From sequence record PZ452595.1: a stretch of DNA of 64,000 nucleotides. One strand, given 5' to 3'. Both the position numbers and the translations under genes were made by a program. This DNA comes from a phage. The notes beneath the pieces are model-generated. The model ran no database searches, was not told the origin of the DNA, and saw only the letters and a program-made list of their open reading frames with translations. Of the stretch, positions 2,029 to 62,610 are shown piece after piece. Position 1 is the stretch's first letter, and each line of letters opens with the position of its first letter.

Positions 2029-2046
2029 GGCCTGTTTCGGCAGGCC
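2029..2046 (+). terminator. Hairpin after gene 18 (ggcctg-tttcgg-caggcc)
   Basis: Perfect 6-bp inverted repeat directly after the gene 18 stop; may attenuate rather than terminate. Confidence 0.4.
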
Positions 2047-2620: not shown

Positions 2621-2626
2621 AATGAA

Positions 2627-2642
2627 TGGGGAGAAATCCCCA
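2627..2642 (+). terminator. Hairpin after gene 19 (tGGGGagaaatCCCCa)
   Basis: GC stem directly after the gene 19 stop. Confidence 0.45.
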
Positions 2643-2652
2643 TCCTGCTTAA

Positions 2653-8010: not shown

Positions 8011-8024
8011 TCTTTGACGATTTA

Positions 8025-8042
8025 AGGGACCTTCGGGTCCCT
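8025..8042 (+). terminator. Rho-independent terminator after gene 23 (GGGACC-UUCG-GGUCCC)
   Basis: Perfect GC stem with UUCG tetraloop, followed by a T-rich tract. Confidence 0.7.
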
Positions 8043-8058
8043 TTAGTTGTTTTTATGG

Positions 8059-8066
8059 TATAAATA
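8059..8066 (+). promoter_or_regulatory. T4 late promoter motif TATAAATA (P24)
   Basis: Exact TATAAATA about 28 nt upstream of the gene 24 ATG. Confidence 0.6.
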
Positions 8067-8093
8067 AATCATATAAACCAAAAGGAAAGCGCA

Positions 8094-9380: not shown

Positions 9381-9402
9381 AAAGGGACCGAAAGGTCCCT
9401 TT
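9381..9402. terminator. Bidirectional terminator hairpin between genes 24 and rnlB (GGGACC-GAAA-GGUCCC)
   Basis: GC stem with GNRA loop, flanked by A-run and T-run, between convergent genes. Confidence 0.7.
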
Positions 9403-10901: not shown

Positions 10902-10969
10902 GTTATCGAGTTGGTGCCATTATATACATCATTTTCTGATTGTGTTTTGTGTGCTTTCAAAATGAAGAA

Positions 10970-10985
10970 AGGGGCCGAAGCCCCT
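10970..10985 (-). terminator. Terminator hairpin after hoc (aggggc-UUCG-gcccct on the - strand)
   Basis: Perfect stem and tetraloop just after the hoc stop; the same 16-mer recurs at 31487..31502. Confidence 0.6.
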
Positions 10986-10990
10986 TATGA

Positions 10991-12121
10991 TTATGGATAG
11001 GTATAGATGATACCAGTTTCTAAAGCAGTTTTATGAATGATGTATCCATTACGCGATTCTTGGACATCAACTTCTGGATAGTCTTTCATCATCTTCTGAA
11101 GAGTGTAACGATGCAGGTAGTATTTACTATCTGGATCTTCAGTTTTCCAATCTTTACCTTCTTCAGTCATTTTTTGAATTTCATCCATAACCCACCAACC
11201 GCACCAGATGTAAGCTGAAGTACGATGTGGAAGAGGATGAACATAAGGTAATTCACCTTCTGGTTCTGGAGCAACTTTATCAGTTACCTGAACTTGACCC
11301 GTCGTTTTAACTGTTTTACTATCATAATCAGTTGCAGTAACAACTACAGTAACTTCAATAGTTTGACTTCCAATAGATGAGGTATCAACTGTATATACAT
11401 TAGTTGACCCTTCTACAGGAGAAGAATCTTTCTTCCATGAATACTCAATTTGCGCTTCTTCTGGAGCATCAGTGACATTAGCGGTAAATGTAGCTGAAGC
11501 ATCTTGCTGAACGTTAATAGAAGGAGGAGTCAATGTAACCTGTGGATTCATTGTCTTCTTATTAACTGTTAATGATACTTCATTAGAAGTAACTTCCTTT
11601 TCATTGTAATTTTCTGCTGTTACTTGGGCTACGCATTTAATTCTTTTTACTCCACTTGTAGTTGGAGTATAGCTAAATGTAGAGTTAGTTTCTCCACCAA
11701 CTTGAGAATCATCTACATACCATTTATATGTAGCAGACGCTCCATCAGGTTGAGAAGCTAAGGCAGCAGTAAATTGAACTGGGGTTCCAATTACTCCAAC
11801 AGCGGGACTATTGGGAGTTACTGCCAATGTAGTTGTCTGAGTTTTGTTTTTGACTGTGATAGTTGTAGTAGCTTCTGCTGTTTCAGCTTCAGATTCTGGA
11901 ACTGTATTTGTTGCAACAACTTTAATAGTCTTTTGACCAGCAGGACCTTTTAATACATAATCAAAAGTTGCTTCAGACCCATCTTGTGGAGCATTATCTA
12001 CACTCCAAGCATAAGTAATAGTTCCACCTCCAGTTTCACCACTGGGTGCAGCAGTAAACTGCTTGGTTTCATCAATAACCCCTGTCGGTGTTTTAGGAGT
12101 TATATCAACTGTAAAAGCCAT
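10991..12121 (-). CDS. hoc: Highly immunogenic outer capsid protein Hoc
   Basis: 376 aa, same length as T4 Hoc; T/S/V-rich sequence typical of tandem Ig-like domains. Confidence 0.85.
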   Translation of the reverse strand: MAFTVDITPKTPTGVIDETKQFTAAPSGETGGGTITYAWSVDNAPQDGSEATFDYVLKGPAGQKTIKVVATNTVPESEAETAEATTTITVKNKTQTTTLAVTPNSPAVGVIGTPVQFTAALASQPDGASATYKWYVDDSQVGGETNSTFSYTPTTSGVKRIKCVAQVTAENYNEKEVTSNEVSLTVNKKTMNPQVTLTPPSINVQQDASATFTANVTDAPEEAQIEYSWKKDSSPVEGSTNVYTVDTSSIGSQTIEVTVVVTATDYDSKTVKTTGQVQVTDKVAPEPEGELPYVHPLPHRTSAYIWCGWWVMDEIQKMTEEGKDWKTEDPDSKYYLHRYTLQKMMKDYPEVDVQESRNGYIIHKTALETGIIYTYP

Positions 12122-12861: not shown

Positions 12862-14373
12862 ATGACTGACATTAAAGTACATTTTTATGATTTTAGTCAC
12901 GTGAGAATTGATTGTGAAGAAAGTACATTTCATGAACTCCGTGATTTCTTTAGCTTCGAAGCTGATGGGTATCGTTTTAATCCGAAATACAAATATGGCC
13001 ACTGGGATGGACGAATCCGTCTTTTAGATTATAATCGTCTTCTTCCATTCGGCTTAGTCGGGCAAATTAAAAAGTTCTGTGATAACTTTGGCTATAAAGC
13101 CTGGATTGACCCACAAATTAACGAAAAAGAAGAATTATCAAGAAAAGATTTTGATGAATGGCTTTCTAAATTAGAAATCTATTCAGGAAATAAAAGAATT
13201 GAACCACATTGGTATCAAAAAGATGCAGTGTTCGAAGGATTAGTTAATCGTCGTAGAATTCTTAATCTTCCAACATCCGCCGGTAAATCTTTAATTCAAG
13301 CTTTGCTTGCGCGATATTATTTGGAAAATTATGAAGGTAAAATTCTTATCATTGTTCCAACAACTGCTTTGACAACTCAGATGGCTGATGACTTTGTTGA
13401 CTATCGTTTATTCAGTCATGCAATGATAAAGAAAATTGGTGGCGGAGCATCAAAAGATGATAAATATAAAAATGATGCACCAGTCGTTGTTGGTACATGG
13501 CAAACTGTAGTTAAACAACCAAAAGAATGGTTCTCACAGTTTGGAATGATGATGAATGATGAATGTCATCTTGCTACAGGAAAAAGTATTTCATCTATCA
13601 TATCAGGTTTAAATAACTGCATGTTCAAATTTGGTTTATCTGGTTCATTACGTGATGGCAAAGCCAATATCATGCAGTATGTTGGAATGTTTGGTGAAAT
13701 ATTTAAGCCAGTAACGACTTCTAAATTAATGGAAGATGGACAAGTAACTGAGCTAAAAATTAATAGTATTTTTCTTCGCTATCCAGATGAGTTCACTACT
13801 AAATTAAAGGGAAAAACTTACCAAGAAGAAATAAAAATTATTACTGGGCTCAGTAAAAGAAATAAATGGATCGCTAAATTAGCTATTAAGCTTGCGCAAA
13901 AAGATGAAAACGCTTTTGTCATGTTTAAACATGTATCGCACGGTAAAGCTATTTTCGATTTAATTAAAAATGAATACGATAAAGTTTATTACGTATCAGG
14001 GGAAGTTGATACTGAAACCCGCAATATAATGAAAACCTTAGCTGAAAATGGTAAAGGAATAATTATAGTAGCTAGTTATGGTGTATTTTCTACTGGTATT
14101 TCAGTTAAAAATCTGCACCACGTTGTTTTAGCACACGGTGTTAAATCAAAAATCATTGTATTACAAACAATCGGTCGTGTATTACGTAAGCATGGTTCTA
14201 AGACAATAGCAACAGTCTGGGACCTCATAGATGATTGTGGTGTTAAGCCAAAATCTGCTAATACGAAAAAGAAATATGTTCATTTGAACTATCTTTTAAA
14301 ACACGGCATTGATCGTATTCAGCGCTACGCAGATGAAAAATTTAATTACGTAATGAAAACAGTTAATTTATAA
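12862..14373 (+). CDS. uvsW: UvsW recombination/repair helicase
   Basis: 503 aa with SF2 helicase motifs (Walker A PTSAGKS, DECH box); N-terminus matches T4 UvsW as recalled. Confidence 0.93.
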   Translation: MTDIKVHFYDFSHVRIDCEESTFHELRDFFSFEADGYRFNPKYKYGHWDGRIRLLDYNRLLPFGLVGQIKKFCDNFGYKAWIDPQINEKEELSRKDFDEWLSKLEIYSGNKRIEPHWYQKDAVFEGLVNRRRILNLPTSAGKSLIQALLARYYLENYEGKILIIVPTTALTTQMADDFVDYRLFSHAMIKKIGGGASKDDKYKNDAPVVVGTWQTVVKQPKEWFSQFGMMMNDECHLATGKSISSIISGLNNCMFKFGLSGSLRDGKANIMQYVGMFGEIFKPVTTSKLMEDGQVTELKINSIFLRYPDEFTTKLKGKTYQEEIKIITGLSKRNKWIAKLAIKLAQKDENAFVMFKHVSHGKAIFDLIKNEYDKVYYVSGEVDTETRNIMKTLAENGKGIIIVASYGVFSTGISVKNLHHVVLAHGVKSKIIVLQTIGRVLRKHGSKTIATVWDLIDDCGVKPKSANTKKKYVHLNYLLKHGIDRIQRYADEKFNYVMKTVNL

Positions 14374-14386
14374 GGGCTTCGGCCCT
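14373..14386 (+). other. Short hairpin (GGGC-UUCG-GCCC) overlapping the uvsW stop
   Basis: Short stem with UUCG tetraloop between uvsW and uvsW.1; possible attenuator. Confidence 0.35.
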
Positions 14387-14398
14387 TTGGAGAAAAAG

Positions 14399-14975: not shown

Positions 14976-15203
14976 TTACCCCATATCTCTCATATGCATA
15001 TCAATGCCCATATCTTTAGAATAAAAATATTCATCAAGATATCCGGCAAATTTTCCTTTAATATAAAGGACATCTTCACCACACGGGTGGTCGGCCAGGA
15101 TACGAATATCCTGACGCTTAAGATTATGCTTTTTCATTAAGAATTGAATCTCAGTTTCAAATTCTTCTTCATAATTAAAAGCATCATCAATGTTATATCT
15201 CAT
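14976..15203 (-). CDS. Hypothetical protein (position of T4 uvsY.-1)
   Basis: 75 aa ORF immediately downstream of uvsY on the - strand. Confidence 0.6.
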   Translation of the reverse strand: MRYNIDDAFNYEEEFETEIQFLMKKHNLKRQDIRILADHPCGEDVLYIKGKFAGYLDEYFYSKDMGIDMHMRDMG

Positions 15204-22998: not shown

Positions 22999-23002
22999 CA
23001 AT

Positions 23003-23020
23003 GGGGGCCTTTCGGTCCCC
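23003..23020. terminator. Bidirectional terminator hairpin after gene 54
   Basis: GGGGGCC-TTTC-GGTCCCC stem-loop followed by a T-run, between convergent genes. Confidence 0.6.
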
Positions 23021-23026
23021 ATATTT

Positions 23027-23378: not shown

Positions 23379-25435
23379 TACATTTTGAACTTTTTAGACA
23401 TTCCGTTGATGTTAACCAAAGAAGCCAAGATTTGAGAAACTTCGTTTTCCTCTTCTTTTGATTCTTCTACAAGGAATTGATTAAATCCAGCCATTGGACG
23501 AACTTCACCAGTTTCCATTAGATGGTCGCCATCATATACTGATTCTTCTAATTGTTCAGAAGGAGGAACGATTGTACCTTCGATTAGATACTTGTTATAA
23601 GCAGTTTCTTTCATAAAGTACGTACTTACTTTATTAATCTTCAGTAAAATTCCACGAGGTAGAATAACTTCAGCTTCTGATGGAAATCCTGATAAATGAC
23701 CTGGAACGATAACTTTGATTCGCTCAGCTCCTTTAATTACCATACCCACGCTAGTTTCAGCATCTTCATTAGCATATGTAGAATGACTACCCATATGCAT
23801 CAAATCTTCTGCATCAACAGAACCTTCTCCTTCGCCAGAAAATACCGCACCGGAATCATCTAAGGCCATATAGTTTTTACCATGCTCACCGAAGATATTT
23901 GGTTTAAGCGATGTGGATACGAAGTTCTTGAAATAGAACATTTTATTTTCAATATTATGACGTAAAGTTTTAAAGGTAACTTCTTGTCCACGATAAAGAG
24001 TAGTTCCTGGAGGAAGAACTGAACCTTTAGCGAATGCAGAATCCAACGTCTCGATGTGCTTAATAGCTCGTTCCATATATTCTTCACGGGTAGAATCTGG
24101 TTTACCCAAAAGGAACGAGTTCATTTCAACATATGAATCTGCACAATAATCTTCAATTACATCAGATTCAGCTTGAGTTAATCCTTTTGGAGTTACTTCG
24201 GTGCTTGCGTATTCATATGCCTGAGCAGCAGATTCATTAATCAATTTATAAATGCCATTCATGACAAATTGAATAATAGCTGTCTTTTCATCTGGCGTAG
24301 CTTTAGAACCTTTAACCAAATCATTGATAATTTTCTTAATAACATCAAAGCTATTAGAAATATTAATATCAGCAAGATCGCTTAAAATTTTATCAGTTTT
24401 ATAATCAAAGAATTCTTTATTCTTTAAATATTCTTGAGAACCTTGATATGTTATATCGCTCTGCAACTTGATAGATGGATCACGTAAACGCGCATGGGCT
24501 AATGCAATATGATTTCGGAAACTTTCTAGTTCATAATCGCTAGATTTAAAACGAGAAGCACTTCTCATACCACCGATAGCTCCTTTGCTGAAGTTTGAAC
24601 CAATCTGAATAACGCCAGAGTTCATTGGTCCTTCTGCTTTATATACCGGAACTTTAGATTCAAACTCTTGATATTTCTTAGCAGCGAAGCTATCACCCTG
24701 AAGTGAAGCATCGACAGTAGAATATTGAGCTTGTGCTGCTAATCGACGACTAATTTTAGTTTTTTGAATAACAGCTTGATCCGTGCGCTTATCATTTTCT
24801 AAAGCAATAGAAGCAGCAACAGCAACAGCTTTAGGAACAGCATTACCTGTTTTAACATCTACATAAACATCACCGACCTTTGATTCAACTTTTGTGAATA
24901 ACTCAGTTGAAATAGGAGGTACACCTGGAATGTCTTCTAAATTGGCATTTTTACGGTAAACCATAATATATGCGTACTTTTTATCATAGTCCCAGATTTC
25001 CTTTAAAAGAACATATCGACCTGCTCCTTTAGTACGTACTAAACGGTCAGCAATAACTTGCATTTGACGAGCTGCGCCATTTGTTTTACTCTTTAGTACG
25101 CGGAATAAGCATGCGTCAATTTTATACTGCTTCATTGTTTGAAGAGCAGTATCAAAAACAGCATTAATGACGCCAATTGGATTTCCACCCAAGTTTCTAA
25201 GCTTAACCAGCGATAATTTCTCGTTGACGCCTATCATTACGATATGCATCATTTTATCGCCTGGCTTAACGTTTTTATTTGTATCACCGCCAGAGGTGTA
25301 TGTACAAAATCTAAATCCAGGAAGCACACTTTCTTCGCCGGCTTGAATAGCAAAAATTTGTGGTATTTTATGCTTAGGATTTAAGTTAACAACCGGCGCC
25401 GAAGCGCCGTCAAATAATTCTGTAATAAGTTCCAT
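23378..25435 (-). CDS. alt: Alt-family ADP-ribosyltransferase, paralog 1
   Basis: 685 aa (T4 Alt is about 682 aa); C-terminal region carries ART-type R, STS and ExE motifs (YRGQ, FVSTSL, EAEVILPRG). Confidence 0.85.
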   Translation of the reverse strand: MELITELFDGASAPVVNLNPKHKIPQIFAIQAGEESVLPGFRFCTYTSGGDTNKNVKPGDKMMHIVMIGVNEKLSLVKLRNLGGNPIGVINAVFDTALQTMKQYKIDACLFRVLKSKTNGAARQMQVIADRLVRTKGAGRYVLLKEIWDYDKKYAYIMVYRKNANLEDIPGVPPISTELFTKVESKVGDVYVDVKTGNAVPKAVAVAASIALENDKRTDQAVIQKTKISRRLAAQAQYSTVDASLQGDSFAAKKYQEFESKVPVYKAEGPMNSGVIQIGSNFSKGAIGGMRSASRFKSSDYELESFRNHIALAHARLRDPSIKLQSDITYQGSQEYLKNKEFFDYKTDKILSDLADINISNSFDVIKKIINDLVKGSKATPDEKTAIIQFVMNGIYKLINESAAQAYEYASTEVTPKGLTQAESDVIEDYCADSYVEMNSFLLGKPDSTREEYMERAIKHIETLDSAFAKGSVLPPGTTLYRGQEVTFKTLRHNIENKMFYFKNFVSTSLKPNIFGEHGKNYMALDDSGAVFSGEGEGSVDAEDLMHMGSHSTYANEDAETSVGMVIKGAERIKVIVPGHLSGFPSEAEVILPRGILLKINKVSTYFMKETAYNKYLIEGTIVPPSEQLEESVYDGDHLMETGEVRPMAGFNQFLVEESKEEENEVSQILASLVNINGMSKKFKM

Positions 25436-27535: not shown

Positions 27536-27555
27536 ATCCTCTCTAGTGTTTATTC

Positions 27556-27563
27556 TATTTATA
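27556..27563 (-). promoter_or_regulatory. T4 late promoter motif TATAAATA upstream of the alt pair
   Basis: Reverse complement of TATAAATA about 20 nt upstream of the paralog 2 ATG. Confidence 0.55.
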
Positions 27564-27566
27564 AAA

Positions 27567-27588
27567 TTAAAGGCCCGAAGGCCTTTAA
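27567..27588 (-). terminator. Terminator hairpin (AAAGGCC-UUCG-GGCCUUU on the - strand)
   Basis: 9-bp stem overlapping the stop of the 62 aa ORF, upstream of the alt pair. Confidence 0.6.
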
Positions 27589-27773
27589 TAATCTATCGGT
27601 AAGAGAGTACGATATATTTCAAACTTTGGACCTTTTTCATAAGCATCAAAAGTTTCTGTGAATTTATTATAAGCATATGCATCAATAAATTCAATCATGA
27701 TTTGTGATACAGAAGTAGAAACATCTCCGCCTTCTTTTTGAGCCACAACAATTGTTTCTAAGTAAGCTTTCAT
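27585..27773 (-). CDS. Hypothetical protein
   Basis: 62 aa ORF overlapping the gene 30 stop by 4 nt. Confidence 0.5.
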   Translation of the reverse strand: MKAYLETIVVAQKEGGDVSTSVSQIMIEFIDAYAYNKFTETFDAYEKGPKFEIYRTLLPIDY

Positions 27774-31486: not shown

Positions 31487-31502
31487 AGGGGCCGAAGCCC
31501 CT
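31487..31502 (-). terminator. Terminator hairpin (aggggc-UUCG-gcccct), identical to the hoc terminator
   Basis: Same 16-mer as 10970..10985, just after the stop of the upstream ORF. Confidence 0.55.
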
Positions 31503-32334: not shown

Positions 32335-32363
32335 AACTTTGTGCAATCTTTGGAAAATAAAAA

Positions 32364-32383
32364 AGGACTCCCGAAGGAGTCCT
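32364..32383 (-). terminator. Strong Rho-independent terminator (AGGACUCC-UUCG-GGAGUCCU then U-run on the - strand)
   Basis: Perfect 8-bp GC-rich stem, tetraloop and T-tract just after the stop at 32388. Confidence 0.75.
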
Positions 32384-32387
32384 CAAC

Positions 32388-32564
32388 TTATGCTTTCTGC
32401 TTACCAAAACGAGAAGCATCATCTCGAAGAACCGCACGTGCTCGGCGCATGATCTTCTCAACAGTTTGATTGATACGAGAGTTCGACCCACGCTTGTAAC
32501 CAGCGCGTTTAGAATCACCAACTTTCTTTTCAACTGCTTTCTTTGCTTTAGCTTGTTTTGCCAT
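32388..32564 (-). CDS. Small basic protein
   Basis: Track ORF 32388..32606; ATG at 32564 gives 58 aa (MAKQAKAKKAVEKK...), lysine/arginine-rich. Confidence 0.5.
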   Translation of the reverse strand: MAKQAKAKKAVEKKVGDSKRAGYKRGSNSRINQTVEKIMRRARAVLRDDASRFGKQKA

Positions 32565-35859: not shown

Positions 35860-35921
35860 TTCAATTTCCTCATTTGTTTTGGTAGAGCTATAATATCACA
35901 ACTCTACCGTAAAGTAAACCA

Positions 35922-40831: not shown

Positions 40832-40838
40832 AATAAAA

Positions 40839-40852
40839 TGGGCCTTGCGGCC
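40839..40852 (-). other. Hairpin (GGGCC-GCAA-GGCCC on the - strand) in the denA leader
   Basis: GC stem between an upstream GGAG and the AUUUUAUU-AUG start of denA; terminator and/or translational structure. Confidence 0.45.
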
Positions 40853-40858
40853 CACTCC

Positions 40859-47406: not shown

Positions 47407-47466
47407 TTTATTCTCCTCAGTAGTTGATAGGGTAATAGTATCACACTACTACCCTGTTGTAAACAA

Positions 47467-48136: not shown

Positions 48137-48154
48137 AGGGGCTTGATAGCCCCT
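48137..48154 (-). terminator. Hairpin (aggggc-ttgata-gcccct)
   Basis: Inverted repeat between two - strand ORFs. Confidence 0.4.
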
Positions 48155-48494: not shown

Positions 48495-48513
48495 GGGGAC
48501 CCTAGAGGTCCCC
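48495..48513 (-). terminator. Gene 32 Rho-independent terminator
   Basis: GGGGACC-loop-GGTCCCC followed by a T-run on the - strand, 20 nt after the gene 32 stop. Confidence 0.75.
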
Positions 48514-56803: not shown

Positions 56804-56808
56804 ATTGA

Positions 56809-56826
56809 GGGAGCCTTCGGGTTCCC
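56809..56826 (+). terminator. Terminator hairpin after gene 35 (GGGAGCC-UUCG-GGUUCCC)
   Basis: Stem with UUCG tetraloop followed by a T-run. Confidence 0.6.
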
Positions 56827-56834
56827 TTTTTCTT

Positions 56835-56842
56835 TATAAATA
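56835..56842 (+). promoter_or_regulatory. T4 late promoter motif TATAAATA (P36)
   Basis: Exact TATAAATA about 24 nt upstream of the gene 36 ATG. Confidence 0.6.
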
Positions 56843-56865
56843 CTATTAAAATAAAGGGGCATACA

Positions 56866-57530: not shown

Positions 57531-60500
57531 ATGGCTACTTTAAAACAAATACAATTTAAAAGAAGCAAAACTGCAGGAGCACGTCCTGCCGCTTCAGTAT
57601 TAGCCGAAGGTGAATTGGCTATAAACTTAAAAGACCGTGTACTTTTTACTAAAGATGACCAAGGAAATATTATTGATCTGGGTTTTGCTAAAGGCGGTAG
57701 TATTGACGGGAATGTTATTCATACAGGCAATTATAACCAAACTGGCGATTATACTTTAAATGGTGTCTTCACTCAGACTGGTAATTTTAATTTAACTGGT
57801 ATTGCTCGAGTAACTCGCGATATTATTGCCGCTGGGCAGATTATGACTGAAGGCGGAGAACTTATTACAAAAAGTTCAGGTACAGCGCATGTTCGTTTTT
57901 TCGATAACAATAGTCGCGAACGCGGAATCATTTATGCCCCGGCTAATGATGGTTTAACTACACAAGTACTTAATATCAGGGTTCAAGACTACGCCGCTGG
58001 TAGCGAAAGCACTTATGCATTTTCAGGCAGTGGACTATTTACTTCACCTGAAGTATCAGCATGGAAATCTATTTCGTCTCCACAAATTCTGACCGACAAA
58101 GTTATTACAAATGGGAAGAAGACGGGAGATTATGACATTTATTCTATGGCAGACAACGTTCCATTGTCTGAAAGCACTACTGCTATTAATCATCTCCGTG
58201 TTATGCGCAATGCTGTAGGCGCTGGTGTATTCCATGAAGTTAAAGATAATGATGGAATAACTTGGTATACTGGAGATGGCTTAGACACTTATCTTTGGTC
58301 GTTTACCTGGACCGGTGGATTGAAAGCAGGCCATTCTATTTCTGTTGGTACTCCTGGTGGCAATAAAGGATACTCTGAATTAGGGACTGCTTCAATTTCT
58401 CTTGGCGATAATGATACCGGGCTAAAATGGCATCAGGACGGATATTTCTATACAGTAAACAACGGAACAAGAACTTTCATCTATGGTCCAGGAGAAACGC
58501 AAAGCCTTAGAAAAATGGTTATGGCTTATTCTCCAGATGGGCTTCTTATGACAACGCCACCGACAGAAAACTATGCTTTGGCTACTGTTGTTACTTACCA
58601 TGATAATAACGCATACGGTGACGGTCAAACTCTTTTAGGATATTATCAAGGCGGTAACTATCATCATTATTTTCGCGGTAAGGGTACTACAAACATTAAT
58701 ACTCACGGCGGTTTGTTAGTTACTCCTGGTAATATTGACGTTATTGGTGGTTCTGTTAATATCGATGGTAGAAATAATGCTTCTACACTGATGTTTAGAG
58801 GTAACACAACTGGTAGTAGTTCAGTTGATAATATGACAATTTCCGTTTGGGGCAATACGTTTACTAATCCTAGTGTAGGTAATCGTAAAAACGTCATGGA
58901 AATTTCTGATGCAACTAGCTGGATGAGTTATATTCAAAGACTTACAACAGGTGAAGTAGAAATGAACGTTAACGGTTCATTTGAATCATCTGGTGTTACT
59001 GCTGGAAATAGAGGAGTTCACACAACGGGCGAAATTTCATCTGGGGCTGTGAATGCGCTTCGTATTTGGAACGCAGATTATGGAGCTATTTTTAGACGTT
59101 CAGAAGGTAGTCTTCATATTATTCCAACTGCTTATGGTGAAGGTAAACATGGTGATATCGGCCCACTTCGCCCGTTTAGTATGGCTTTAGATACCGGTAA
59201 AGTTACTATTCCAGATTTACAATCAAGTTACAATACGTTCGCAGCGAACGGCTATATTAAATTTGTTGGTCATGGAGCGGGTGCCGGCGGTTATGACATT
59301 CAATATGCTCAAGCGGCTCCTATTTTCCAGGAAATTGATGATGATGCTGTAAGCAAATATTATCCTATTGTTAAACAGAAGTTTTTAAATGGTAAAGCCG
59401 TTTGGTCTTTAGGTACTGAAATTAATTCGGGTACATTCGTTATTCATCATCTGAAAGAAGATGGATCACAGGGCCATACATCAAGATTTAATGCTGATGG
59501 TACAGTTAATTTCCCCGATAACGTTCAGGTCGGCGGCGGTGAAGCTACTATTGCTCGCAATGGTAATATTTTCTCAGATATTTGGAAATCGTTTACTTCT
59601 GCGGGAGACACTACAAATATTCGCGATGCGATAGCTACTCGTGTTGCCAAAGAAGGCGATACGATGACCGGTAGGTTGACTTTATCTGCTGGAAATGATG
59701 CCCTTGTTTTAACTGCGGGCGCTGGCGCTTCATCGCACATCCGTAGTGATGTAGGTGGTACAAATAATTGGTATATAGGCAAAGGCGGCGGCGACAATGG
59801 TCTAGGTTTTTACAGTTACATTACACAAGGCGGTGTATACATAACAAATAACGGCGAAATAGCGCTTTCTCCTCAAGGACAAGGAACATTTAATTTTAAT
59901 AGAGACCGCCTTCATATAAACGGTACACAATGGACTGCGCACCAGGGTGGTGGCTGGGGAAACCAATGGAATCAAGAAGCTCCGATATTTATAGATTTTG
60001 GTAATGTTGGTAATGATAGTTATTATCCTATTATTAAAGGAAAATCTGGTATTACTAATGAAGGATACATATCTGGCGTTGATTTTGGTATGCGACGCAT
60101 TACTAATAACTGGGCGCAAGGTATTATTCGTGTAGGTAACCAGGAAAATGGTTCTGATCCACAAGCTATCTATGAATTTCATCACAATGGAGTTCTGTAT
60201 GTTCCTAACATGGTTAAAACTGGAGCAAGATTATCAGCTGGCGGTGGTGACCCGGTGTGGCAAGGCGCATGCGTTGTTATTGGTGATAATGATACTGGAT
60301 TAGTTCATGGTGGTGATGGACGAATTAATATGGTTGCAAATGGAGTTCATATTGCTTCATGGTCTTCATCTTATCATTCTCATCCAGGCCTTTGGGATTC
60401 AAACGGAGCTTTGTGGACAGAAGTTGGCAAAGCAATTATTTCTCATGGTCATTTAGTTCAGGCGAATGACAGCTATTCAACGTTTGTCCGTGATGTTTAT

Positions 60501-60842
60501 GTCCGCTCTGATATTCGTGTTAAAAAAGACCTCGTTAAATTTGAAAATGCTTCTGAAAAGCTTTCTAAAATTAACGGTTACACTTATATGCAGAAACGTG
60601 GAACTGACGAAGAAGGTAATCAGAAATGGGAACCTAACGCCGGTTTAATTGCTCAAGAAGTTCAAGCTATTTTACCAGAATTAGTTGAAGGCGACCCGGA
60701 TGGTGAAGCTTTACTTCGTTTGAACTATAACGGTGTAATTGGTTTAAATACAGCTGCAATCAATGAGCATACTGCAGAAATTGCGGAACTTAAATCAGAA
60801 ATTGAAGAACTTAAAGCATTAGTTAAATCATTGTTAAAATAA
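57531..60842 (+). CDS. 37: Long tail fibre distal subunit gp37 with C-terminal intramolecular-chaperone-like domain
   Basis: 1103 aa; last 120 aa (SDIRVKKDL...YTYMQKRG...coiled-coil end) resemble auto-cleaving fibre chaperone domains. Confidence 0.9.
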
Positions 60843-60846
60843 TAAG

Positions 60847-60862
60847 AGGGGCTTCGGCCCCT
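60847..60862 (+). terminator. Hairpin after gene 37 (GGGGC-UUCG-GCCCC)
   Basis: Stem with UUCG tetraloop between gene 37 and the gene 38 SD. Confidence 0.5.
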
Positions 60863-60873
60863 TGGAGGTTTAT

Positions 60874-62337: not shown

Positions 62338-62610
62338 TTATTTGTTCGTATACATCTCTAGATATCGATATACACCCTCAAAACCCTCGTTGAATTCGTC
62401 GATGAGGGTTTTCTTATCTTCCTGAGTTAATTCAGAAACAATTTTACGGAATGAATTCTGATTTAACTTTCTACCTTCATGCGTTACTCCAATCTCATTC
62501 AGAAATGCAATAAAATTAGCACGATTTTCAACAATATCTTCTCTGGAAAATTTAATCAAAATAGACGCAACAGTAATAATTTCACGAACTGTATCAATGT
62601 TTTTATTCAT
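62338..62610 (-). CDS. asiA: Anti-sigma70 protein AsiA
   Basis: 90 aa, same length as T4 AsiA. Confidence 0.93.
   Translation of the reverse strand: MNKNIDTVREIITVASILIKFSREDIVENRANFIAFLNEIGVTHEGRKLNQNSFRKIVSELTQEDKKTLIDEFNEGFEGVYRYLEMYTNK

Follow-up and report, generated by a model that had tools for sequence, protein, structure and literature searches.

The 64,000-nt stretch of phage DNA analyzed here (PZ452595.1; hereafter the window) carries a family of short GC-rich hairpins at its gene boundaries. Very probably, these hairpins are the extra-stable tetraloops of T4-type mRNA, i.e. C(UUCG)G loops with a few C(GNRA)G loops among them, and comprise two classes: hairpins followed by a U-tract (class A), which would act as terminators or attenuators, and hairpins without a U-tract (class B), which would serve as intercistronic punctuation. 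The original prediction, made from the sequence of the window, had proposed that a family of extra-stable tetraloops at gene and operon boundaries is under selection. The persistence of the hairpins at orthologous junctions and the covariation of their stems bear this out.

Gene map and hairpin inventory

The phage is T4-like (Tequatrovirus), with RB51 as a near relative. Among Tequatrovirus genomes, RB51 and RB68 gave the best matches to the hoc region (98%), and the stretch from 25 to 49 kb matched many T4-like phages at 95-97%. Gene names were assigned by transferring the RB51 annotation onto the ORF map of the window. Transcription proceeds on the plus strand for genes 18-24, uvsW with uvsW.1, genes 51-54, and genes 34-t, and on the minus strand for rnlB-inh, uvsY.-2 to gene 26, alt.-3 to rnh, and from asiA onward. 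Thus, hoc (10991-12121) and 30.7/30.6 are read from the minus strand and gene 37 (57531-60842) from the plus strand.

The hairpins are listed in Table 1. As in intrinsic terminators, a GC stem-loop directly followed by a U-tract was found for the class A hairpins starting at 8024, 9381, 10969, 23001, 32363, 48495, and 56807, with borderline U-tracts at 27566 and 40835. Class B hairpins (2029, 2626, 14372, 31487, 48137, and 60846) lack the U-tract and abut the next Shine-Dalgarno (SD) sequence or a late promoter. The two hairpins inside coding sequences (25394 and 15094) match neither class, and the assignment of the uvsY.-1 hairpin to the family is doubtful.

Table 1. Hairpins of the window, written 5′ to 3′ in RNA sense, with strand, class, and adjoining sequence
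Hairpin	Position	Strand	Class	Structure	Context
Gene 18	2029..2046	+	B	GGCCUGU-UUCG-GCAGGCC	U.G closing pair; 16 nt past stop; directly followed by late promoter aTATAAATA (TATAAATA)
Gene 19	2626..2643	+	B	AUGGGGA-GAAA-UCCCCAU	GNRA loop; 5 nt past stop
Gene 23	8024..8043	+	A	AAGGGACC-UUCG-GGUCCCUU	Terminator-type; followed by UAGUUGUUUUU, then late promoter TATAAATA for gene 24
Gene 24/rnlB	9381..9402	both	A	AAAGGGACC-GAAA-GGUCCCUUU	Convergent genes 24 (+) and rnlB (-); UUUC on minus strand
hoc (16-mer copy 1)	10969..10986	-	A	AAGGGGC-UUCG-GCCCCUU	4 nt past hoc stop; followed by UCUUCAUUUU
uvsW	14372..14387	+	B	AAGGGC-UUCG-GCCCUU	Overlaps uvsW stop; followed by U-GGAGAAAAAGA-UG, i.e. U-GGAG-AAAAAG-AUG, the uvsW.1 SD and start
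uvsY.-1	15094..15115	-		GUCAGGAUA-UUCG-UAUCCUGGC	Inside coding sequence; A-U closing pair
Gene 54/alt.-3	23001..23022	both	A	AUGGGGGCC-UUUC-GGUCCCCAU	Convergent genes 54 (+) and alt.-3 (-); followed by AUUUUUAUUU
alt.-2	25394..25409	-		CGGCGC-UUCG-GCGCCG	Inside coding sequence; codons 10-14, residues GASAP
alt.1	27566..27589	-	A (borderline)	AUUAAAGGCC-UUCG-GGCCUUUAAU	Overlaps alt.1 stop; followed by late promoter TATAAATA and alt ribosome-binding site
30.7/30.6 (16-mer copy 2)	31487..31502	-	B	AGGGGC-UUCG-GCCCCU	Followed by UACUGAGGAAAAUACUAUG (SD and 30.6 start)
30.9 (ORF at 32388)	32363..32384	-	A	GAGGACUCC-UUCG-GGAGUCCUU	Terminator-type; followed by UUUUAUUUU, then early-promoter-like GTTTAC...TAGTAT
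nrdB/denA	40835..40858	-	A (borderline)	GGAG-UGGGCC-GCAA-GGCCCA-UUUU	SD-like GGAG 5′ of core stem; denA AUG 7-9 nt 3′ of stem
frd.3/frd.2	48137..48154	-	B	AGGGGCU-AUCA-AGCCCCU	Followed by SD GAGGAAAA and start codon
Gene 32	48495..48513	-	A	GGGGACC-UCUAG-GGUCCCC	Terminator; followed by UUUUUUAUUUU (U7 tract), then early-promoter-like GTTTAC
Gene 35	56807..56828	+	A	GAGGGAGCC-UUCG-GGUUCCCUU	Sense G.U pairs; followed by UUUCUU, then late promoter TATAAATA
Gene 37 (16-mer copy 3)	60846..60863	+	B	GAGGGGC-UUCG-GCCCCUU	3 nt past stop; directly followed by GGAGG-UUUAU-AUG of gene 38

All hairpins that the original prediction had named in addition to the 16-mer (after genes 23, 24, 54, 35, 37, uvsW, 30.9, and 32) are present. 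This includes the GC stem of the gene 32 terminator, whose loop can be drawn as the described pentaloop or as a triloop. Hairpins after gene 18, gene 19, alt.1, and nrdB, as well as those within alt.-2 and uvsY.-1, had been overlooked. Of the three loop types described (UUCG, CGAA, and GAAA), UUCG holds for gene 23, gene 35, gene 37, uvsW, and 30.9, and GAAA for gene 24, but CGAA does not occur in the sense strand of any hairpin. The distinction between UUCG and CGAA loops is an artefact of having read the plus strand alone. The GAAA loop ascribed to gene 54 is found on the minus strand only, where it comes with an A-C mismatch; the plus-strand RNA, with the loop UUUC, folds better owing to a G.U pair.

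Three identical copies of a 16-mer

The 16-mer AGGGGCCGAAGCCCCT, reported as an identical pair after hoc and inside the 30.x cluster, was recovered exactly at both sites (10970-10985 and 31487-31502). A third exact copy, in reverse complement and absent from the original prediction, lies after gene 37 (60847-60862), and a copy with two mismatches forms the uvsW hairpin. In 100 dinucleotide-preserving shuffles of the window, the 16-mer had no match. Because hoc and 30.7/30.6 are transcribed from the minus strand and gene 37 from the plus strand, the mRNA sequence of each of the three copies is AGGGGC-UUCG-GCCCCU. The stem AGGGGC also recurs in the frd.3/frd.2 hairpin.

The identity of the three copies is a case of convergence on the commonest stem of the family. 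When the 5-nt stem core next to UUCG was counted in distinct site/stem combinations across T4-like relatives, GGGGC was the most frequent one (15/81 combinations, at 7 of 11 junctions). Finding this core in three of the nine boundary hairpins is therefore unremarkable. The target of such convergence would be a small set of preferred sequences in which the 5′ arm is rich in G, the 3′ arm is rich in C, and the loop is closed by C-G. We also considered a mobile repeat as the cause of the triple identity. This was rejected, as GGGGC is the commonest stem and the flanks of the copies are unrelated, with identity ending at the 16-18 nt of the hairpin itself.

Enrichment and strand specificity

The hexamer CTTCGG occurs 25 times in the window, 12 times in sense and 13 times in antisense orientation, and thus has no strand bias by itself. 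The stems around it do: nine of the 12 sense copies sit in stems of at least 6 bp (6-10 bp; predicted energies -8.8 to -14.9 kcal/mol), whereas none of the 13 antisense copies does, their stems being no longer than 4 bp (hypergeometric p about 1e-4). An energy-based enumeration of hairpins over the whole window (dG <= -8) likewise returned 11 sense UUCG hairpins (dG -8.8 or lower), of which nine lie at gene boundaries, but none with a CGAA loop in sense orientation. The loop is closed by a C-G pair in nine of the 11, the exceptions being U.G at 2029 and A-U at 15094.

In ViennaRNA predictions, the hairpins are the minimum-free-energy structures in their local context (-12.6 kcal/mol for the hoc hairpin). 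Folding z-scores of the short hairpins were modest, ranging from -1.2 to -2.7 in contexts of about 46 nt, while the gene 23 hairpin reached -4.9. Stem G.U pairs at gene 35, gene 54, 30.9, and nrdB correspond to A-C mismatches on the opposite strand. No Rfam family matched any part of the window at or above its gathering score.

The short length of the elements (16-24 nt) and their modest local z-scores would be compatible with chance or compositional matches, i.e. short GC palindromes in an AT-rich genome. Such an origin is practically inconceivable, however, given three exact 16-mers against none in the shuffled windows. Moreover, the window contains 13 UUCG hairpins whose stems reach 6 bp or more, where 100 first-order Markov simulations led to an expectation of 1.3 and a maximum of 6. 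The strand bias, the placement at stop codons, and the conservation with covariation described below also speak against it. Shuffles, Markov simulations, the sense/antisense contrast, and the loop counts among relatives refute it.

Conservation among T4-like relatives

For comparison, about 220 T4-like loci around gp23, ligase, gp35, gp54, NrdA, and holin were taken from IMG/VR, together with T4. For each upstream gene, the stop codon of the orthologue was located by tblastn and the best downstream hairpin was taken; hairpins with a dG of -9 or lower counted as strong. Across 12 unidirectional junctions, a strong hairpin whose start fell within -15 to +30 nt of the stop codon was present in 256 distinct downstream regions, a count that exceeds the number of independent events because the relatives are phylogenetically non-independent. 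These hairpins started at a median of 4 nt past the stop codon, and their loops were UUCG in 141 cases, CGAA in 2, and GNRA in about 27. At convergent junctions, UUCG was found in 0 of 35.

A comparison of hairpin conservation with flanking divergence, as suggested by the original prediction, showed that the hairpins persist and their stems covary, even though the flanking proteins share only 24-60% identity (24% for Hoc). UUCG loops were mounted on many different stems per site. At the hoc site, 36 of 39 distinct regions retained a hairpin, including 17 UUCG hairpins on 13 stems; at gene 23, 44 of 49 did, with 20 UUCG hairpins on 11 stems; and nrdB had 11 stems. In a loop-centered alignment of 27 distinct tetraloop hairpins from the hoc site, seven of eight stem pairs were changed on both sides, 94% of the cells were paired, and the closing C-G pair was invariant (27/27). 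The aligned sequences had been picked because they fold, yet 36 of the 39 distinct regions at this site do so.

UUCG loops were also counted at further junctions: (i) 30.9 (14/19); (ii) gene 35 (11/16, followed by the late promoter TATAAATA in 81%); (iii) alt.1 (7/7); (iv) gene 32, in more distant relatives (13/17); (v) gene 19 (15/26), where the window itself has GAAA; and (vi) nrdB/denA (20/27), with the same order of SD, hairpin, and AUG. At most of the junctions compared, T4 has the hairpins found in the window. It shares those after gene 18, gene 23, hoc, alt.1, and 30.9 as well as the one in uvsY.-1, with identical hairpins in both phages at gene 18, hoc (AAGGGGC-UUCG-GCCCCUU), alt.1, 30.9, and uvsY.-1. 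The hairpin in the alt.-2 coding sequence has a counterpart in alt.-1 of T4. Restricted to one lineage, the uvsW hairpin was found in the window, RB51, and two further relatives (L041 and L100), and is absent from T4 and from more distant relatives. At the uvsW/uvsW.1 junction, two other relatives (L003 and L104) have an HNH ORF.

Loop orientation was variable at the two convergent junctions. The loop of the gene 24/rnlB hairpin is inverted to UUUC in T4, L003, and L041, and that of gene 54/alt.-3 reads GAAA in L100-102 and T4 and UUUC in L099 and L104. Such flips occur between relatives that are more than 98% identical, which suggests template-switch inversion within the hairpin.

These inversions, and several other observations, could be taken to mean that the hairpins, especially the GGGGC...GCCCC copies, act mainly in DNA, as recombination linkers, as mobile cassettes resembling the promoter-early stem-loops (PeSL) of other T4-like phages, or as GGGC/GCCC deletion endpoints (Mosig 1998) that drive modular shuffling. 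PeSL stem-loops, 'generally involving GGGG...CCCC', mediate recombination in RB49 and phi1, and GGGC/GCCC motifs were found in about half of 13 T4 deletions (PMC2839356). In the window, early-promoter-like sequences lie 3′ of the hairpins at 32363 and 48495, and promoter-embedded stem-loops at 35881 and 47429; the uvsW hairpin was gained recently in a single lineage, at a junction that holds an HNH ORF in L003 and L104. We nevertheless regard a main role in DNA as improbable. Loop orientation is tied to transcription (141 UUCG against 2 CGAA in the relatives and, within the window, 11 against 0), the G.U pairs confined to the sense strand argue for selection at the RNA level, the identity of the 16-mer copies stops at the hairpin with GGGGC being simply the commonest stem, and most hairpins flank conserved core genes rather than variable ORFan regions. 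Selection thus appears to act on RNA rather than DNA, because loop orientation follows transcription, G.U pairs form in the sense strand only, and the hairpins start right after stop codons.

Hairpins with and without a U-tract

Both classes of hairpins stay distinct across the T4-like relatives. The fraction of relatives with a U-tract was 0.75-1.0 at gene 23 (80%), hoc, gene 54, 30.9 (100%), gene 32, and gene 35 (100%), but 0-0.15 at gene 18 (9%), gene 19, and 30.7, and 0.33 at gene 37. At the 30.7 site, an SD sequence was found within 12 nt 3′ of the hairpin in nine of nine relatives and a U-tract in none of the nine; at gene 37, the SD sequence was within this distance in 83%.

Roughly half of the hairpins carry a U-tract and resemble ordinary intrinsic terminators. 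Judged by this anatomy, class A hairpins would be factor-independent terminator or attenuator stem-loops that close transcription units. Often, they are fused to the next late (TATAAATA) or early (GTTTAC...TAnnnT) promoter, an arrangement that may constitute terminator-promoter cassettes. In the original prediction, the hairpins had been thought to reflect 'not just termination'; in view of their sequence, this fits class B. The interpretation offered there is supported in part.

It could be argued that all hairpins are intrinsic terminators or attenuators. In this view, UUCG is favored only because it nucleates rapid and stable folding in the wake of RNA polymerase, and the hairpins do nothing further for RNA stability. 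At least seven boundary hairpins indeed have a clear U-tract that is conserved in relatives, in addition to the borderline cases of alt.1 and nrdB, and the stem-loop of an RB49 PeSL cassette equals rrnB T1 as a terminator in vivo (PMC2839356). We consider this explanation rather unlikely, as it leaves aside the six class B hairpins, which lack a U-tract in the window and largely so across relatives. These hairpins lie 0-5 nt from the SD sequence of a promoterless next gene, and one further hairpin is found inside an ORF (alt.-2). Since there is no promoter in between, the gene behind a hairpin without U-tract must be co-transcribed with the preceding one. Class B hairpins, located only a few nucleotides ahead of such co-transcribed genes, are thus probably not efficient intrinsic terminators.

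Possible roles of class B hairpins

Under the preferred reading, class B hairpins would be fast-folding intercistronic RNA punctuation. They may stop 3′ exonucleases once an endonuclease has cut further downstream, form a cap at the 5′ end of the next cistron, or do both, and they may keep the adjacent ribosome-binding site unpaired. In the original prediction, the extra-stable loops had been taken to suggest selection for nuclease-resistant 3′ ends. From the sequence, 3′ protection, 5′ protection, insulation or spacing of the ribosome-binding site, and attenuation and pausing fit equally well.

Protection of RNA ends is plausible, because in T4 cuts by RNase E and RegB are entry sites for RNase II, RNase R, and PNPase (PMC3014915, PMC1702504) and thereby open the way for 3′ exonucleases. 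RNA secondary structure also shields against RegB (PMC3014915, PMC1702504), and the SD region of uvsW.1 (GGAGAAAAAGA) agrees with the RegB/S1 consensus GGAGRAYARAA (consensus from PMC1702504) at 9 of 11 positions. As a general explanation, protection from RegB was rejected, since the 30.6 site is of the poorly cut GGAA type and late transcripts are reported to be resistant (PMC3014915). A 5′ CUUCGG hairpin stabilizes gene 32 mRNA, according to PMC8948821. In the window, the gene 32 leader contains no sense CUUCGG hairpin. A search of the accessible literature for T4 3′-end mapping or Term-seq data yielded nothing usable.

Tentatively, and with the balance of probability somewhat against it, we propose that the conserved UUCG hairpins include a subclass of non-terminator modules, located either behind a stop codon and just ahead of the following ribosome-binding site (30.7/30.6, gene 37/gene 38, uvsW/uvsW.1, and frd.3/frd.2) or between SD and AUG (nrdB/denA, possibly a third split ribosome-binding site after those of genes 38 and 25), which would govern how stable individual mRNA segments are and how the downstream gene is translated. 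If class B hairpins do control segmental mRNA stability or translation, this would account for the way in which T4 adjusts expression along its long polycistronic transcripts, and the hairpins would be compact, portable insulator parts.

Comparison with known systems

Class A hairpins resemble the intrinsic (Rho-independent) terminators of E. coli and its phages, with a GC-rich stem-loop and a U-tract ending transcription units. Class B hairpins differ from these by the missing U-tract and by their position inside polycistronic units; the hairpins begin at a median of 4 nt past the stop codon.

The PeSL cassettes of RB49 and phi1 combine GGGG...CCCC intergenic stem-loops with strong early promoters (Arbiol et al. 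2010, PMC2839356). Elements of the window that resemble them, namely those of 30.9 (32363) and gene 32 (48495) and the stem-loops at 35881 and 47429, have GTTTAC -35-like boxes. None of the three 16-mer copies adjoins a sigma70-like early promoter with an AT-rich upstream region. Moreover, unlike PeSL, many hairpins of the window are paired with late promoters (TATAAATA) or with no promoter.

In T4 genes 38 and 25, a hairpin between the SD sequence and the AUG splits the ribosome-binding site (reviewed in PMC3014915). The nrdB/denA hairpin is similarly placed between the SD-like GGAG/AAGGA and the AUG of denA, no SD-like sequence follows the hairpin, and the layout is conserved. By analogy, denA may possess a split ribosome-binding site. 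Other hairpins of the family differ in that they sit upstream of the SD sequence.

The value of the present analysis as a discovery is small, and its additions are descriptive: (i) read along the mRNA, every loop is UUCG; (ii) the classes with and without a U-tract hold across T4-like phages; (iii) stems covary freely around a fixed loop and C-G closing pair; and (iv) the order of SD, hairpin, and AUG is conserved at nrdB/denA. The abundance of CUUCGG hairpins between T4 genes, observed in 1988, is where the study of the UUCG tetraloop began.

The closest known system is that of the CUUCGG hairpins of T4 mRNA (Tuerk et al. 1988, PNAS 85:1364, as cited in PMC4371310 and PMC8948821). According to PMC8948821, which refers to Tuerk et al. 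1988, the motif (X)2-8CUUCGG(Y)2-8 often occurs between the genes of phages, T4 being particularly rich in it, and PMC1702504 states that intergenic stem-loops and terminators of T4 often carry UUCG. As far as the T4 hairpins are described in these sources, those of the window share with them the phage group, the (X)nC-UUCG-G(Y)n motif, the intergenic location on the coding strand, and the UUCG loop in RNA sense (11 UUCG against 0 CGAA in the window). The T4 hairpins are reported to have an unusually high thermal stability and to block reverse transcriptase; for those of the window, nearest-neighbor energies predict -8.8 to -14.9 kcal/mol. On the basis of these accounts, the hairpins of the window are members of the CUUCGG family of Tuerk et al. 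1988, so that the finding is correct but, because this family was reported for T4 in that year, not new. In comparison with T4, nothing essential differs; the window adds the copy at uvsW/uvsW.1 and, at 30.7/30.6, a UUCG loop where T4 has UUCA.

Loop type and orientation of the intercistronic hairpins

At both convergent junctions (i.e. between genes on facing strands), the orientation of the tetraloop was found to flip among phages that share over 98% identity in the flanking proteins. The g24/rnlB hairpin carries GAAA in the window; T4, L003 and L041 have UUUC there, and L008 has AAAA. At g54/alt.-3, the window, L099 and L104 share a UUUC loop; L100-102 and T4 carry GAAA. Such changes of orientation suggest that loops are inverted via template switching inside the quasi-palindrome. 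Outside convergent junctions, loop flips were rare (CGAA at the minus-strand gene hoc in L053; GCAA vs UUGC, with the stem unchanged). Loop type was also tallied by distinct orthologous regions: UUCG was present in 0 of the 35 convergent-junction hairpins (orthologues of 9381 and 23001), and in 141 of 256 hairpins at unidirectional junctions.

Hairpins and related elements in the window, with T4-like phage loci from IMG/VR (L-numbers) used for comparison
Feature	Position	Strand	Remarks
Hairpin-late-promoter sites	2029-2060, 8044-8075, 27540-27566, 56829-56845		
g24/rnlB convergent-junction hairpin	9381-9402		Relatives include L003, L008, L041; L227 also entered for loop-flip comparison
uvsW/uvsW.1 hairpin	14372-14387		Compared with L003, L104, L017, L107, L108, L122
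g54/alt.-3 convergent-junction hairpin	23001-23022		Relatives include L099-L104; L227 also entered for loop-flip comparison
Hairpin inside alt.-2 ORF	25394-25409	minus	CGGCGC-UUCG-GCGCCG
PeSL-like element	35881-35908	minus	
nrdB/denA hairpin	40835-40858	minus	Loci compared: L125-L161, L227
PeSL-like element	47429-47455	minus	
t hairpin	62380-62412	plus	-18 kcal/mol; 14-bp stem; AUUCG pentaloop

Lineage-specific gain, possible displacement and a probable terminator

The uvsW/uvsW.1 hairpin was gained recently and is specific to one lineage. Farther relatives have no hairpin at this junction, and their stop/SD or stop/start signals overlap (TGAGGAA..., ATGA), while in L003 and L104 an ORF resembling an HNH endonuclease directly follows uvsW in place of the hairpin. 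The SD region 3′ of the hairpin, GGAGAAAAAGA, fits the RegB/S1 consensus GGAGRAYARAA (PMC1702504) at 9 of 11 positions.

The hairpin inside alt.-2 is a perfect, all-GC C(UUCG)G structure; its codons specify the residues GASAP, which belong to the N-terminal propeptide of this Alt paralogue. Its T4 counterpart lies in alt.-1 (at 123409). The alt gene encodes EDTTLP at the equivalent place, without a hairpin. As only 3 nt separate alt and alt.-2, the structure could be an ‘intercistronic’ hairpin shifted into the ORF.

The strongest simple hairpin of the window, probably the terminator of gene t, adjoins that gene downstream and falls within the 3′ part of the asiA reading frame, which converges on t.

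Hairpins combined with expression signals

Several hairpins, those of g18-g19, g23-g24, alt.1-alt and g35-g36, have the T4 late-promoter consensus TATAAATA only a few nucleotides downstream, forming compact cassettes. At alt.1 and g35, this arrangement is kept in relatives (86% and 81%, respectively).

At nrdB/denA, an SD-like AAGGA/GGAG overlapping the nrdB stop codon is followed by the hairpin, a U-rich spacer (7-10 nt) and the denA AUG, and the interval from hairpin to AUG contains no Shine-Dalgarno sequence. The order is kept in about 25 distinct T4-like loci with covarying stems; the loop is GCAA in the window and T4, and UUCG in most relatives. From its arrangement, this layout looks like the ‘split RBS’ shown for T4 genes 38 and 25 (PMC3014915). 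No mention of denA as a split-RBS gene was found in the literature searched.

In the window, the elements at 35881 and 47429 each have a GTTTAC -35-like box immediately 5′ of a 12-bp stem-loop, a -10-like sequence within the stem-loop apex (GATATTAT and GATACTAT), and then an SD and ATG. The T4 record has a misc_feature (133300-133313) at the homologous cd.2/cd.3 promoter, described as ‘inverted complement of previously reported sequence’. Both window elements resemble PeSL, the promoter-early stem-loop cassette of phages RB49 and phi1 (PMC2839356).
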